NCBI GenBank assembly: GCA_963756875.1
Contig: CAVWPA010000003.1
Location: forward strand, 640,001-704,000
DNA length: 64,000 bases
Direction: 5' to 3'
Source of the DNA: an uncultured Verrucomicrobiae bacterium
GTDB lineage: Bacteria > Verrucomicrobiota > Verrucomicrobiia > Chthoniobacterales > UBA10450
The notes beneath the pieces are model-generated. The model was not told the DNA's origin. It worked only from the letters and a program-made list of their open reading frames with translations, and ran no database searches. Shown here piece after piece: positions 17,911 to 43,814 of this stretch. Made by a program: the position numbers and the translations under genes. Each line of letters begins with the position of its first letter. Within the stretch, counting starts at the first letter, position 1.

Positions 17911-18073
17911 ATCGATCTACTTAACGTAACCGCGGCGGGAGTGAAAGTAATGATCCGCCAAACACGCCAAATGCCGCCGAAAGAAGGCTGTTGTTGTGTC
18001 ATTTGCCGTATGAGAAGGCCTGGCGGGACGTCGGCGGTAGTGTTCGCTGATTGTCAGTCCCCGGGGAAATACT

Positions 18074-18945: not shown

Positions 18946-19076
18946 AAAGCTCCAAATTCCAAGCTCCAACATCCAGAGAAATCCCAGGCTCCAATATTCA
19001 AAATGGCACGCATTGCCCTATTGGAGTTTGATGATTGAAGCTTCTTTGGGGCTTGGATGTTGGAATTTGGAGCTTT
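18946..19076. repeat. Inverted heptamer-array element (AAGCTCC-type)
   Basis: AAAGCTCC AAATTCC AAGCTCC AACATCC AGAG ... TTGGATG TTGGAAT TTGGAGCTTT; 17-bp perfect terminal inverted repeat. Confidence 0.9.
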
Positions 19077-25351: not shown

Positions 25352-25382
25352 GATTCAATTAGCCACGGATGCCACGGTGAGC

Positions 25383-25484
25383 AATGACGAAGCACGAATG
25401 ACGAATGCGGAAGGAAGCTCGAATGCTCAAATGCCGAAGCTCACCAAACTCGAAATCGTCATTGGACATTCGACATTCGTCATT
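25383..25484. repeat. Inverted heptamer-array element (AATGACG-type)
   Basis: AATGACG AAGCACG AATGACG AATGCGG AAGG AAGCTCG ... TCGTCAT TGGACAT TCGACAT TCGTCATT. Confidence 0.85.
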
Positions 25485-25485
25485 A

Positions 25486-27183
25486 TTACGTTCGTCCGGT
25501 TTTCTCGAGTAACTCCCGTATCAAACTCATCCGCTTCCGCTCTTTCGGACTGGAGCGCAATTCCGCGATGGTGCGTTGCATCCGATGGGTCCAATTGAAA
25601 CTGGCCGCCGTTCCCGGAATGTTGAAACGATACTTGCGCGCGAGCAGGTCGGTGATCAGAACGATCGCGATCCAGGATTCGCTCTTGAAGAGGCCCTCCA
25701 TCATTGCCGGGTAAAAATCTCTTTCGAAATCGATCGGTTCGCTCGGAGGCGTAAAACCGGCGAACCGCGCGATCTTCTCCAGCTCGGAACGGGCCTGGTC
25801 GGAAGTCGAGGTCGGATGAATGAATCCCTCCTCCCATAGCGCACGCATCGGCTTGTGATCGTGCGTCGCATAGGTTGCGACGGAAAGCCGCTCGTACTCG
25901 TTACCCGGCGTGACGCGGTGGTGATAATATTCCCATTGTGGGATCTTGAACCCTGCGATGCCTAACGAACGCAAATTCGGCCGGACGTAATCGGGCACCG
26001 TGCCCAGGTCCTCACCAATCACGCGTTCGGCGCCTGCTTCATCCAAGACAATCCGCAAATATTCCTCACCGTCCCGGCGGTTGGCATCGCAATTTTCCGG
26101 GGCGGAATCGTCGCGTGGCGCGAAGTGTGGCGCGCGCCCGCCGGTTCGCTCCAGCATCTGGTTCCAGTCGAGCGGCAGGAACTCTTTGTTGTGCTGTGGC
26201 CGCCATGGAAATGCGTAGATGCGATAAAAGCCAAGGACGTGATCGATGCGAAACAGATGAAACATTCGCCGCACTCCCCGAACACGGCGCCGCCACCAAT
26301 CGAAGTTGCGCTCGCGCATCACGTCCCAGCGATAAAGCGGGATTCCCCAGTTTTGTCCCCATTTTTGCGTGAACGCATCATCCTTGAAATACGCTTCCGG
26401 AGGCGCGCCGCCGCACCAATCCAGGGCGAACTCATCGCGATGCGCAAAAACGTCCGCGCTGCAATAACTCACGCCAAACGGAATGTCCCCCATGAGGGCC
26501 ACTTCGCGTTCTTCGGCATAAGATTTAACCGCGCGCCATTGTTCGTGCGCGATCCATTGAACATATCGGAAGAAATTCTCGCGTTGAGAAAATGCCGCTG
26601 CTTTGTCGGGCGGCTGCTGATTTAGCCACGTGCGCGCCGTTTCGGGGTGCCGCAGATGCGCCGGCCATTTGTCCCATGCTTCGCGCTCGGCGTTTTCCTC
26701 CATGAGGCCGCGGAAAAACGCATACTCATCGAGCCAATCCGATTCCGCCGTGCAAAAGTCTCGAAATGCTGATCTGCGATGTTCGCCCGCGTTCGCCAGG
26801 AAATGCGCAAACGCCTTCTCCAGAAGACGTCGCTTAATTTTTTTGACCCGCCGATAGCGGACCATGCCATGCCGCAATCGCGTGAGATCGACGCCGGCCA
26901 TCACGGCATCGAAATCTTCGCGCGTTAAATCTTCCGGGGAGCCGGGCGCGAGATGCAATGTAGTCGGTTCGACCGCCGTCGAGCTGATCGCGTTGTATGG
27001 ACTGTTATCGCCGCCGGTTTCATTGATCGGCAGGAGCTCCACGAGTTTGAAACCGCCCTCCGCGGCCCAATCGACGAACTCACGCAGGGCCGCGACGTCG
27101 CCGATACCGAGGTCGTTCTCGCCGCGCAAACCAAAAAGCGGCGCGAGAATCCCGGCGATCTTCTTTTCGGGCGATAGCTCCAT
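25486..27183 (-). CDS. malQ: 4-alpha-glucanotransferase (GH77)
   Basis: GIGD, NSPY, LMGDIP, GAPPE, GQNWGIPLY, FRIDHVLG, GEDLG, ATHDH. Confidence 0.93.
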   Translation of the reverse strand: MELSPEKKIAGILAPLFGLRGENDLGIGDVAALREFVDWAAEGGFKLVELLPINETGGDNSPYNAISSTAVEPTTLHLAPGSPEDLTREDFDAVMAGVDLTRLRHGMVRYRRVKKIKRRLLEKAFAHFLANAGEHRRSAFRDFCTAESDWLDEYAFFRGLMEENAEREAWDKWPAHLRHPETARTWLNQQPPDKAAAFSQRENFFRYVQWIAHEQWRAVKSYAEEREVALMGDIPFGVSYCSADVFAHRDEFALDWCGGAPPEAYFKDDAFTQKWGQNWGIPLYRWDVMRERNFDWWRRRVRGVRRMFHLFRIDHVLGFYRIYAFPWRPQHNKEFLPLDWNQMLERTGGRAPHFAPRDDSAPENCDANRRDGEEYLRIVLDEAGAERVIGEDLGTVPDYVRPNLRSLGIAGFKIPQWEYYHHRVTPGNEYERLSVATYATHDHKPMRALWEEGFIHPTSTSDQARSELEKIARFAGFTPPSEPIDFERDFYPAMMEGLFKSESWIAIVLITDLLARKYRFNIPGTAASFNWTHRMQRTIAELRSSPKERKRMSLIRELLEKTGRT

Positions 27184-27195
27184 TAGTTTTCCTTA

Positions 27196-27652
27196 GCCAC
27201 AGATGGACACAGATGAAACACCGATCAGAAGACGAGGCGTTTAAATTCTACTTTTGTTCGTCCGAAGTTAATGAGAAGGCCGAGTTTCATGCCCGTTGCT
27301 TTAAGTTCATTGACAAGTTGAGCCTCGTCATGCTTGTCGTTCTGCGGAGCGATTTTGATTTCGATCAAGACGCAGTCTTCAATGATCAGGTCAGCGTCAT
27401 ATTCTCCGACGATCGTATCTTTGTAGCGAACAGTGATCCGCTTTTCTAACTCCGCTCGAAAAATACGCCGGACCAGCTCGACTTGAAGTGCGCGGTGATA
27501 AACGCGCTCCAAAAAACCGTAACCCAGATGATTATAGACTTCGAAAGAAGCTCCAATGATTGCTTCCGTAACTTCCTTGTGCGGAAACGGTGTTTCACCT
27601 TCAAGTCCGACTTCAAGCATTTTATCCGTGTAGATCTGTGTTTATCTGTGGC
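27196..27652. mobile_element. Putative cassette: GxxExxY gene bounded by inverted CACAGAT arrays
   Basis: Left GCCACAGAT GGACACAGAT GAAACACCGAT (27196-27225); right ATCCGTG TAG ATCTGTG TTT ATCTGTGGC (27624-27652); mobility is inferred. Confidence 0.6.
27225..27620 (-). CDS. GxxExxY protein (PD-(D/E)XK-like nuclease family)
   Basis: 131 aa; LGYGFLERVY, ADLIIEDCVLIEIK, GLLINFG. Confidence 0.92.
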   Translation of the reverse strand: MLEVGLEGETPFPHKEVTEAIIGASFEVYNHLGYGFLERVYHRALQVELVRRIFRAELEKRITVRYKDTIVGEYDADLIIEDCVLIEIKIAPQNDKHDEAQLVNELKATGMKLGLLINFGRTKVEFKRLVF

Positions 27653-27660
27653 GTAAGAAA

Positions 27661-29724
27661 TCAGCTTCTCTTTACTTGCCAGTCTTCAAGCAAATTGACC
27701 GGAATCTCTTTCAGAAATCGCGAGGGCCGCTGGAAGACATCGCCGTAACCGCCGCCGAGACGCATGTGGGGGAAAGCGAGATAGAGCTCGTCGCGCGCGC
27801 GCGTCACCGCCACGTAAAACAATCGTCGTTCTTCTTCCAGCGCCTCGCGCGTGTCGAGCGAACGCGCGCTCGGAAACATTCCGTCAGTCAACCAGATCAC
27901 GAAGACAGCGCGGAACTCCAGGCCTTTCGCCTGATGGACCGACGAGAGGTTGACCGCTTCCTTGTCGGCCCCCTGGTTCGGCGCGGCTTCGGCATCCACA
28001 TTGCTGATCAGCGCCAATTGCGACAGAAACTCGTTCAGATCCTTGAATTGTCGCGCAAACGCGGCGAGCTGATTCAAATCTTCCCGGCGCAATTCGTAGT
28101 TCGTGAAATTTACCTTCGCATAATCGTCGTACATCGCTTCGACCACGGATGTAATCATGGCGGAGGGCGGATTGGGTAGTCCGCCCGGCGCAATCTCGTC
28201 GAGCGTATAAGCCAGTTGCTCCCACGATTTTTTCGAGCGCGCGCTCACGCTCATGGCGCGCAAACGTTTGCCAAAGTTGTAGTCCCGGCTTGTCGGGATG
28301 ACCCCGGTGGGTGATGCGGCATTTTCGGTACCGCGGTCGGCGACCGCGGCTACAGGGACGGGCAGCGATTTCTCCCAGGCGTTCCAGAGGTTATCGGCAC
28401 TGCGATTGCCGATGCCGGGCAACAACTTCACCATCCGCCTGAAAGCGACTTCGTCGCGCGGGTTTGCCACGAACCGTAGGAATGCGGTGACGTCTTTAAT
28501 GTGGGCCTGCTCGAAAAAGCGGATGCCGCTGGTGATCTGATACGGAATACCGCGCCGCGACAATTCCAACTGCAACTCGATGGCGTGAAAATGCGCCCGA
28601 TAAAGCACGGCAATATCCCGGAGATCGACGTCCTCATCGCGCAGCTCCAGGATCCGTTGCGCCACGAATTGTGCCTGCTCCATTCCGTCGTTCAACGCCA
28701 CCAGCGCCGGCTTTACCGCCTGCGAAGTGCGCGTGGGCGCGAGATTCTTTCGAAATTGCTCCACGTTTGCCGCGATGGCCGCGTTTGCCACCTCGAGGAT
28801 CTCCGGCACGCTCCGGTAATTCAGCTCGATCTTAAAAACCCGCGCATCCGGATAACGCTTTGGGAATTCGAGAATGTTCTTAAAATTGGCGCCGCGCCAC
28901 GAGTAGATCGACTGCGCGTCGTCGCCCACAACCATGACGTTGCGATGATCGCGCGCCAGTGTGTCGATCAGGTCTGCCTGGATTTTGTTGGTGTCCTGGT
29001 ATTCATCGACCAGAATGAATTGAAATTGCCGGCGATAAGATTCCGCGATGTCCTCGTTCTGCCGCAACATCAACAGCGTTTTCTCGAGCAGATCGTCGAA
29101 ATCCATCGAGTTGGTGGCCTTTTTCCTTTTCTCGTACCGGGCGTGCACATCCTTGATCCTGTCGAGCAACGCCAGGAAGTAGGGAAACTTTCCGGCGAGC
29201 AATTCTTCCATCGGCGTTTCGGTGTTGACGACGAAACTGAAGATTTCCGCCAGCACATCGCCTTTCGGAAAACGTATTTCCTTCGGATCGATCCCGGCGC
29301 CGGCCACGACCGTGTTGATCAAATCTTTCTGGTCTTCGCGGTCCATGATGGTGAATGCGCTGTTGTAACCAAGGGCGCTGCCGTGACGGCGCAGCATCCG
29401 GTTGCCGATGGAATGGAAGGTGCCGCCCCAAATGCCGCTGGCATCGACCGGCAACAGATTTGCCACGCGATCGAGCATCTGCCGCGCTGCCTTATTGGTA
29501 AACGTGAGCAGCAAAATATTTCGCGGATCGATTCCGTTCTCGAGTAAATAGGCAACGCGATAAGTGAGGGTGCGCGTTTTGCCCGAGCCGGCGCCGGCGA
29601 TGACAAGCAACGGTCCCGGTCCAGCCGTTACCGCCGCCAGTTGCTGCTCATTCAGCTCTGCCGAGTAATCGATGTGGATCGATGTCGATCGTGGTGTGCG
29701 TTGTAGCGTGTATTGGCGAGACAT
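27661..29724 (-). CDS. UvrD/PcrA-family ATP-dependent DNA helicase
   Basis: AGAGSGKT, TFTNKAA, VDEYQD, VGDDAQSIYSWRGA, NYRS, HQAKGLEF, EERRLFYVAVTRA. Confidence 0.95.
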   Translation of the reverse strand: MSRQYTLQRTPRSTSIHIDYSAELNEQQLAAVTAGPGPLLVIAGAGSGKTRTLTYRVAYLLENGIDPRNILLLTFTNKAARQMLDRVANLLPVDASGIWGGTFHSIGNRMLRRHGSALGYNSAFTIMDREDQKDLINTVVAGAGIDPKEIRFPKGDVLAEIFSFVVNTETPMEELLAGKFPYFLALLDRIKDVHARYEKRKKATNSMDFDDLLEKTLLMLRQNEDIAESYRRQFQFILVDEYQDTNKIQADLIDTLARDHRNVMVVGDDAQSIYSWRGANFKNILEFPKRYPDARVFKIELNYRSVPEILEVANAAIAANVEQFRKNLAPTRTSQAVKPALVALNDGMEQAQFVAQRILELRDEDVDLRDIAVLYRAHFHAIELQLELSRRGIPYQITSGIRFFEQAHIKDVTAFLRFVANPRDEVAFRRMVKLLPGIGNRSADNLWNAWEKSLPVPVAAVADRGTENAASPTGVIPTSRDYNFGKRLRAMSVSARSKKSWEQLAYTLDEIAPGGLPNPPSAMITSVVEAMYDDYAKVNFTNYELRREDLNQLAAFARQFKDLNEFLSQLALISNVDAEAAPNQGADKEAVNLSSVHQAKGLEFRAVFVIWLTDGMFPSARSLDTREALEEERRLFYVAVTRARDELYLAFPHMRLGGGYGDVFQRPSRFLKEIPVNLLEDWQVKRS
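28278..28354. repeat. GTAG-type palindromic element in frame inside the helicase
   Basis: TGTAGTCCCGG...CCGCGGTCGGCGACCGCGGCTACA; encodes VAAVADRGTENAASPTGVIPTSRDYN. Confidence 0.75.
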
Positions 29725-29837
29725 GAGACGCGATAGGGTGGGTCGGCCTACGCTGCTTGCACGGCAACATCTCTTCAACGGAAATCTGGTTAAAGAACCC
29801 GGTCGGGTCAGTGAAAAGCCTGGGCGAAGCTGCAACT

Positions 29838-43669: not shown

Positions 43670-43674
43670 TGGCG

Positions 43675-43786
43675 CGCGAATCACCCGCCTCCGTCCAACT
43701 ACGGCGCGGCAAGCGCGAATTACGCTAAAACAATCAAAGAATCAGGATTGATTGATAAAAGTTCGCGTCGATTCGTGTGATTCGCG
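43675..43786. repeat. Gene-less inverted 9-bp-period array (CGCGAAT) with nested 30-bp mini-element
   Basis: CGCGAATCA C[30 nt]GCGAAT TACGCTAA ... TTCGCGT CG ATTCGTG TG ATTCGCG. Confidence 0.75.
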
Positions 43787-43814
43787 GGGCAAGAATCTGC
43801 CCGGCTGATCGAAA

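Follow-up and report, generated by a model that had tools for sequence, protein, structure and literature searches.

Why does a small nuclease-family gene lie flush between two inverted arrays of short, regularly spaced units, and is its protein the one that reads them? The question is raised by a 457-bp unit in a 64,000-nucleotide stretch of DNA from an uncultured Verrucomicrobiae bacterium (contig CAVWPA010000003.1, positions 640,001 to 704,000), referred to here as the window. The gene belongs to the GxxExxY family and sits, together with its repeats, between a helicase gene and malQ. The reading set out here, to which we give about an even chance, is that the unit is a discrete, probably mobile hairpin cassette whose protein would recognize the phased units in its own arms. 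No published account of such a gene-plus-arms unit was found in the full-text literature, a coverage that leaves out most subscription journals.

In the open reading frame (ORF) listing of the window, the GxxExxY gene occupies positions 27225-27620 on the minus strand and encodes 131 amino acids, which with the stop codon makes 396 nt. It fills the gap between two inverted arrays of three CAC(A/G)GAT units each, spaced by about 10 bp, and the coordinates given for this arrangement by the first-pass annotation agree to the base. The unit starts with GCCACAGAT at 27196 and finishes with ATCTGTGGC at 27652. On the plus strand, the left array is made up of GCCACAGAT (27196-27204), ACACAGAT (27207-27214) and a degenerate AACACCGAT (27217-27225), and the right array of ATCCGTGT (27624-27631), ATCTGTGT (27634-27641) and ATCTGTGGC (27644-27652). 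The two outermost 9-mers (27196-27204 and 27644-27652) complement each other perfectly, the stop codon (plus-strand TCA, 27225-27227) overlaps the third left unit by one base, and the ATG (27618-27620) is 3 nt from the right array, all of which had been described correctly. Read in the sense of the gene, the 5' arm (27624-27652, minus strand) runs from the outer end of the element as GCCACAGAT-AA-ACACAGAT-CT-ACACGGAT, three units at 10-bp spacing, and continues as AAA-ATG. The 3' side reads TGA-TCGGTGT-TTC-ATCTGTGT-CC-ATCTGTGGC, so that the 3' arm (27196-27225, minus strand) can be written (T)GATCGGTGT-TTC-ATCTGTGT-CC-ATCTGTGGC, its degenerate inner unit sharing one base with the stop codon. 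The spacers between the units are unpaired in this copy (AA opposite CC and CU opposite UC).

A repeat finder, in which CACAGATG recurs at 10-bp spacing, places the best inverted repeat at 27188-27214 and 27634-27660 (27 nt, 81% complementary), and the complementarity therefore extends 8 nt past the ends first noted. On one side, it reaches the bases right after the helicase stop codon, TTTCTTAC in gene sense (27653-27660, minus strand), which pair with 27188-27195. On the other, it reaches the AAGGA before the malQ start, a putative ribosome-binding-like motif held within TAAGGAAAAC in gene sense (27186-27195, minus strand). Both neighbors are co-oriented with the cassette on the minus strand: a UvrD/PcrA-type helicase upstream (27661-29835) and malQ, encoding a GH77 4-alpha-glucanotransferase, downstream (25486-27183).

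The evidence that this is a discrete unit comes from its recurrence elsewhere. A scan of metagenome contigs with the window protein gave 80 loci, and contexts were compared for homologues of 70-79% identity. Eight lie at the helicase-malQ junction or on helicase-only contigs (L168, L172, L183-185, L191, the broken L199, and L169, where the contig ends). Ten (L170, L171, L173-180) are found at a second locus, flanked by a glycosyltransferase/methyltransferase gene and a methyltransferase gene (scanned in L170, L174 and L177), and seven fall into three further contexts (L186-190; L182; L181). When six cassettes from five contexts were aligned, the invariant columns started with GCCACAGAT (GCCAC) and finished with GTGGC, the flanks of contexts C, D and E being unrelated outside this block, and the ends of the block coincide with 27196-27652 in the window. 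The whole cassette, with sharp GCCAC/GTGGC ends, recurs in at least four unrelated contexts.

Some copies show irregularities of their own. The 3' arm is tandemly duplicated together with the last few gene codons (…CTTCTGA plus arm, twice) in L010 (2550-2630), L011 and L172, and a partial second copy of the gene (its first 33-43 codons) is found about 400 bp upstream of the full cassette in L174-L176, L179, L180 and L211.

The encoded protein matches TIGR04256 (GxxExxY) with 122.1 bits against a cut-off of 35, over model positions 2-116 of 116, and PF13366 (PDDEXK_3) with 118.8 bits against a cut-off of 22. The eponymous motif is GFLERVY at residues 35-41; G35, E38 and Y41, along with D77, E87 and K89, are intact, and are invariant or nearly so in alignments of 18 and 69 sequences. 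An NELK sequence had been taken at first as a sign that this copy was decaying, a suspicion that must be abandoned. NELK is common to the orthologues and to another subfamily, the catalytic residues are intact, and dN/dS is 0.078 and 0.087 against the orthologues in genomes G010 and G017, with dS saturated. The gene is under strong purifying selection and is not decaying.

The AlphaFold2 model of the protein (pLDDT 91) has structural matches to PD-(D/E)XK nucleases only, none of them close. The best Foldseek match is Cas4 (4ic1, E = 1.4e-4) and the best VIA-align match is BpuSI (3s1s, Z 8.5), while Hjc gives a Z of 7.2. As modeled, the protein has the restriction-endonuclease-like α/β core of the PD-(D/E)XK superfamily, and metal-dependent phosphodiester hydrolysis is predicted as a trait of that superfamily. 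No sequence-detectable relative was found among solved structures, and PADLOC and PHROGs gave no match. PF13366 is a very widespread family, and the accessible part of a 2012 superfamily survey (PMC3424549) gives its function as unknown. Elsewhere in the literature, the name GxxExxY comes up in connection with a mislabelled cas4.

The repeats were counted as tandem pairs, defined as two CACRGAT words 1-4 nt apart, with the same pattern read backwards as a control. The 2.69-Mb genome (G000) contains 44 such pairs (21 + 23 on the two strands) and no backwards pair on either; backwards pairs were likewise absent from all 41 genomes searched, that is, this genome and 40 relatives from the same family or order. 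The single 7-mers are not enriched, with 251 on the forward and 234 on the reverse strand against about 310 expected per strand. A gene was counted as bracketed when it was surrounded by an inverted repeat that scored at least 12 without gaps, and the null was provided by 1000 random 390-bp pseudo-genes in this genome, of which 4 were bracketed.

The window gene is one of five GxxExxY genes in its genome. Four of the five pass the bracket score, and the fifth (C2:10042) has AACGAAG-type arrays on both sides by eye, without a clean bracket. Each paralogue has a unit of its own, CACAGAT, CACGGAT, CACGAAT, CGCCAAA or AACGAAG. GxxExxY matches are present in 29 of the 41 genomes, and bracketing repeats were found at 28 of 37 loci in the order, three of which are from unpublished genomes (L012, L044 and L047). 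Across phyla, the sample consisted of 80 loci of one GxxExxY subfamily, whose titles suggest about 17 phylum-level groups; with a gapped inverted-repeat score of at least 29 as the cut-off, 50 of the 75 analysable loci had inverted repeats. Of 147 control windows, taken 700 bp away within those loci, none reached the cut-off (maximum 28). The units are CAC(A/G)GAG, CACGAAG, CGCAGAG or CACAAAG, and the purine-rich arm comes first in 43 of the 50. The expectation of the first-pass annotation that GxxExxY genes elsewhere would have such flanks is borne out at all three levels.

The 10-bp period that it had stressed is not a general trait. Among the 19 of 50 cross-phylum loci with an ungapped block of at least 24 nt and clear periodicity, the period is 8 in 11 loci, 9 in seven and 10 in one, and in this genome GxxExxY arms have periods of 9-10. 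An interpretation of the 10-bp period as B-DNA helical phasing was considered as a general rule and rejected, periods of 8 and 9 being dominant elsewhere.

A second protein family has the same layout with another period. The TIGR02436 four-helix-bundle family first became known from intervening sequences (IVSs) in 23S rRNA. The genome contains three four-helix-bundle genes of this family (L006-L008, at C1:687987-688376, C1:485518-486093 and C3:103811-104323), bracketed by arrays of 6-7-bp units. In relatives, where further loci are L139-L167, 26 of 32 four-helix-bundle loci (two of them from unpublished genomes) have the inverted repeat, which none of 59 controls has. Period 7 fits best in 26 of the 32, and period 6 is rare. 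One four-helix-bundle copy has about ten tandem CAGAGGA units upstream. Six of the eight GxxExxY and four-helix-bundle cassettes in the genome lie between co-oriented genes: NuoK-like/NuoL-like, NuoF-like/NuoG-like, GAPDH/PGK, two PilT-type ATPases, helicase/malQ and WecG-type transferase/carbamoyltransferase.

Which period the arms have depends on the protein family that is encoded. Since period 7 goes with the four-helix-bundle genes, the gene-less period-7 hairpins of the genome can be assigned to the four-helix-bundle type and those of period 9-10 to the GxxExxY type. A generic stem has no need of a family-specific period, and it is chiefly on this ground that the protein is inferred to read its own arms.

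Gene-less hairpins with the unit types of the paralogues are scattered through the genome. They have nothing but their units in common, with unrelated loops and spacers. CACRGAT pairs reach their highest numbers in carriers of this cassette (44 in G000, 37 in G010, 36 in G017 and 15 in G002); G021 has 88. The 29 genomes with a GxxExxY match have a median of 5 pairs, and the 12 without any have a median of 2.5. The number of array pairs correlates with the number of GxxExxY genes, with a Spearman rho of 0.41 for all 41 genomes and 0.69 for the 25 that belong to the family, values that overstate the association because the relatives are not independent. The suggestion that repeat abundance would follow GxxExxY therefore holds as a trend, with the exceptions given below. 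CGCCAAA arrays number 11 in this genome, six in G021 and at most four in other genomes, where controls are similar, and one CGCCAAA pair in G021 lies about 110 bp from a GxxExxY match.

Within the arms, it is the units that are kept. Among 19 distinct cassettes of the window subfamily, position 4 of the unit is nearly always A or G and differs between partner units in about nine cases, the A/G choice being largely independent on the two arms; the A-G-A pattern is mirrored in one subfamily cassette only (L011). The arms show a mirror identity of 88%, which a shift by one unit lowers to 70%, but this is not counted as selection for pairing, because the register with the best score was the one picked, and it takes in the outer end, which is not repeated. 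Unit motif and phasing are conserved, and the spacers and loops are not, as expected of protein recognition sites at the ends of an element.

The helicase-malQ junction was surveyed in 18 relatives in which both flanks were found. Three have an orthologous gene with 65-70% identity (G010, G017 and the unpublished G002), and one (G021) has arms around a 122-bp loop. Gene-less CACAGAT or CGCAGAT hairpins occupy the junction in four, hairpins of other unit types in four more (one in the unpublished G007) and a different hairpin element in two; one further junction is ambiguous. In three (one in the unpublished G014), there is only an empty spacer of 16-19 bp. The gene-less and empty alleles looked for at this junction thus exist, and the gene is not syntenically fixed. 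In another relative, G003, a 66% homologue adjoins malQ and the helicase match is 3.7 kb off. A supposed remnant of the gene within the 122-bp loop (L022) was discarded as not significant (8 of 19 residues matching, E = 0.27).

On a tree of the flanking proteins, which takes in L012 and L015 from unpublished genomes, the junction states are scattered, and gene carriers occur on both sides of the deepest well-supported split. The pattern fits either an old resident that has repeatedly decayed and been replaced or a favored site at which insertion has recurred. In other genera, the helicase-malQ spacer (L019 and L023) holds another hairpin element, TGTCATTCCGAGCG...GAGGAATC plus complement, which at L015 (G007) is nested in a CACGAAGG-type hairpin.

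If the unit is a mobile cassette, the nuclease would recognize the phased units in its arms, whether in duplex DNA or in DNA folded back on itself, and would cut at or near the cassette ends. Host repair, recombination or replication might then copy the cassette into short intergenic spacers, and gene-less hairpins with cognate units could be copied in trans. Once inserted, the arms would pair in read-through mRNA. The stop codon upstream would then come to lie next to the ribosome site downstream, and this pairing may limit polar damage to the host operon. A broader proposal, which we offer tentatively and with chances somewhat short of even, is that such cassettes form a large and so far undescribed class of miniature mobile elements in many bacterial phyla. 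In these, a protein of about 130 residues would read the phased units in its own arms and spread both its own gene and gene-less hairpins to spacers within housekeeping operons, the nuclease using 8-10-bp units and the four-helix-bundle protein 7-bp units.

Several observations weigh against a mobile cassette driven by its nuclease. The four-helix-bundle family is non-catalytic and unrelated and still has the same layout, so the architecture needs no nuclease. To our knowledge, a hydrolytic PD-(D/E)XK enzyme alone cannot join DNA. The genome holds no near-identical copies of cassettes or hairpins, unlike recently spread miniature inverted-repeat transposable elements (MITEs) or REPINs, and no target-site duplication was found at the ends of 11 hairpins of this genome or in five cassette contexts. 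The cassette at the junction looks old and largely vertical, with orthologues of 65-70% identity and saturated dS in four or five genera. Genome G039, which is 99% complete, has 13 array pairs and no GxxExxY match, and G003 has an orthologue yet only three pairs.

Copies in the glycosyltransferase island keep roughly the first 40 malQ codons, and three of them (L170, L171 and L174) also keep about 30 nt of the 3' end of the helicase gene, scraps that fit recombination or rearrangement over precise excision at the arms. Of the candidate autonomous element of the first-pass annotation, this much stands: the cassette is discrete and transplantable, gene-less relatives cognate to it exist, and its protein is under selection. 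In the missing duplications and recent copies and in the scraps of old flank on one displaced copy, it is unlike known mobile elements.

A different explanation, which we consider unlikely, is that the unit is an RNA element resembling an IVS. The arms would form a stem in the read-through transcript that is cut by RNase III, freeing a small mRNA and insulating the operon, and the nuclease would be cargo, spread by rare recombination. The ORF-bearing IVS in helix 45 of the Coxiella burnetii 23S rRNA, as described in the accessible text of PMC4990558, has this geometry: its length is 428-444 nt, its ORF sits in a loop closed by a 28-bp terminal stem, and RNase III cleaves it. It shares with the cassette a length of about 430-460 nt, a terminal stem of about 28-31 bp, one small ORF in the loop and a GC content below that of the host. 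Moreover, the ORF family of such IVSs is represented in this genome by the three four-helix-bundle cassettes in operon spacers. When the window cassette was folded as RNA, a terminal stem of about 31 bp formed in both the minimum-energy and the centroid structure (z = -5.1), in which the AAGGA ahead of malQ pairs with the bases that follow the helicase stop codon. The stop upstream and the start downstream lie close against the arms. The gene is in the sense direction at 43 and antisense at seven of 50 loci with co-directional neighbors. From the predicted stem and this orientation, it is very likely that the arms pair in read-through mRNA.

Such pairing does not appear to be what keeps the arms alike, and this idea was dropped. 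In 50 cassettes, there are 62 sense-strand G.U oppositions against 67 A.C (p = 0.72), and about four against about four within the window subfamily, giving no wobble asymmetry and no sign of selection at the RNA level. Also contrary to an IVS-like origin, the inter-unit spacers are unpaired where the units are conserved, and the motif and period depend on the protein family, which a generic RNase III stem would not need. Unlike the 23S IVSs, the cassette occupies an mRNA spacer with a protein gene on either side, its ORF encodes a nuclease instead of S23p and its arms consist of phased units; RNase III processing of the cassette would be by analogy only. The 23S gene of this genome (C1:202042-205086) showed no inverted repeat in a scan.

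It is similarly improbable, in our judgment, that the gene is a resident host gene, for example in repair or nucleic-acid turnover, with the units acting as autoregulatory sites or as mRNA stabilizers of the repetitive extragenic palindromic (REP) kind and the patchy distribution arising by loss and rearrangement. The age of the junction orthologues and their strong purifying selection favor this view, as do the absence of recent identical copies and target-site duplications and the old-flank scraps on a displaced copy. The units are also kept in gene-less hairpins whose loops have fully diverged, pointing to a function in place. A resident gene would hardly, however, be found with identical arm ends in at least four unrelated contexts, nor would its junction be occupied by differing hairpin types in sister genera and be empty in three sister genera. 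Also at odds with it are the presence of several paralogues in one genome, no two of them with the same unit, and the close relatives in many phyla; for PF13366, the accessible part of the superfamily survey speaks of "multiple transfers, mixed clades" (PMC3424549). All eight cassette genes of the genome have a GC content of 46-53% compared to 55-58% in their flanks, and GC at third codon positions is 0.48 in the window gene against 0.67-0.70 in its neighbors. This low GC has not ameliorated, although the orthologues at this junction are old enough for dS to be saturated.

That two independent tandem arrays merely happen to flank a small gene is refuted by the controls: short-period arrays are indeed common in this genome (47 periodic inverted pairs), and at C1:107536-108055 two inverted period-7 arrays flank an ordinary, putatively rplS-like gene (ribosomal protein L19), so that a bracketed ORF is not always cassette cargo, but the backwards pattern, the random sites, the shifted windows and the identical boundaries in five contexts leave practically no room for coincidence.

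Compared with known systems, a mobile, self-recognizing cassette comes closest in outline to the REP/RAYT system (TnpA-REP, an HUH Y1 enzyme, with its REPtrons and REPINs), which belongs to Proteobacteria. In both, a small gene lies amid inverted short repeats that are also dispersed without a gene in spacers, each paralogue has its cognate repeat type and elements occur inside operons. The cassette protein differs in being of the PD-(D/E)XK type and not HUH/Y1, Pfam at E <= 0.01 giving PF13366 only. Its arms are built from 2-4 phased, non-palindromic units of 7-8 nt in place of one REP palindrome, its gene-less copies share units and not the whole sequence, and it is spread over many phyla.

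MITEs and small terminal inverted repeat transposons with several transposase-binding sites per end resemble the cassette in their sharp terminal inverted repeats, in the gene-less forms that far outnumber those with a gene and in having repeated units like protein sites at each end. The cassette, in contrast, has no target-site duplication, no transposase of a known family and no families of near-identical copies. Short-period intergenic repeats of bacteria, among them heptamer repeats and the STRR of cyanobacteria, are tandem units of 6-10 nt that are not known to have a function, and the 7-bp arrays around the four-helix-bundle genes here are of this kind. In the accessible text of PMC4692102, such repeats are treated as tandem arrays, and the searchable literature gave no sign that they had been connected with inverted pairing or with a gene family lying between them.

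Other hairpin-like features are present in the window. Of the gene-less relatives reported earlier, the inverted array is confirmed at 43670-43791 as a degenerate array of CGCGAAT-like units (18 nt, 83% complementary), and the stub at 25361-25377 is one-armed, a CACGG stub AGCCACGGATGCCACGG of the CAC(A/G)GAT unit type. Beside the stub and immediately downstream of malQ, there is a further, distinct hairpin without a gene, built from 7-bp ACGAATG units (25383-25484; 25 nt, 80% complementary). It fills the spacer to the next downstream gene, putatively malate-dehydrogenase-like. With the cassette on its other side, malQ is bordered by hairpin elements both upstream and downstream. Elsewhere in the window, a period-7 inverted pair (AAAGCTCCAAATTCCAAGCTCCAA…) is found at 18946-19076, and a CGCCAAA tandem pair at 17956-17971.

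Should the arms turn out to be RNA stems only, the cassettes would still show that an insert of this kind is tolerated inside essential operons (nuo, gap-pgk). The flanks of PF13366 genes offer a candidate substrate for this family, in the form of phased CAC(A/G)GAT-type units that differ between subfamilies. If the protein does act on its arms, the cassette would represent a new build of selfish or mobile element, with a minimal hydrolytic nuclease and no transposase, and would tie together the gene-carrying rRNA IVSs, the REP-like hairpins of operons and the short-period intergenic repeats. If such elements do form a class, they would link the short-period repeats to the ORF-bearing IVSs of rRNA, give the GxxExxY family a substrate and explain where much of the short-period repeat DNA between bacterial genes comes from.

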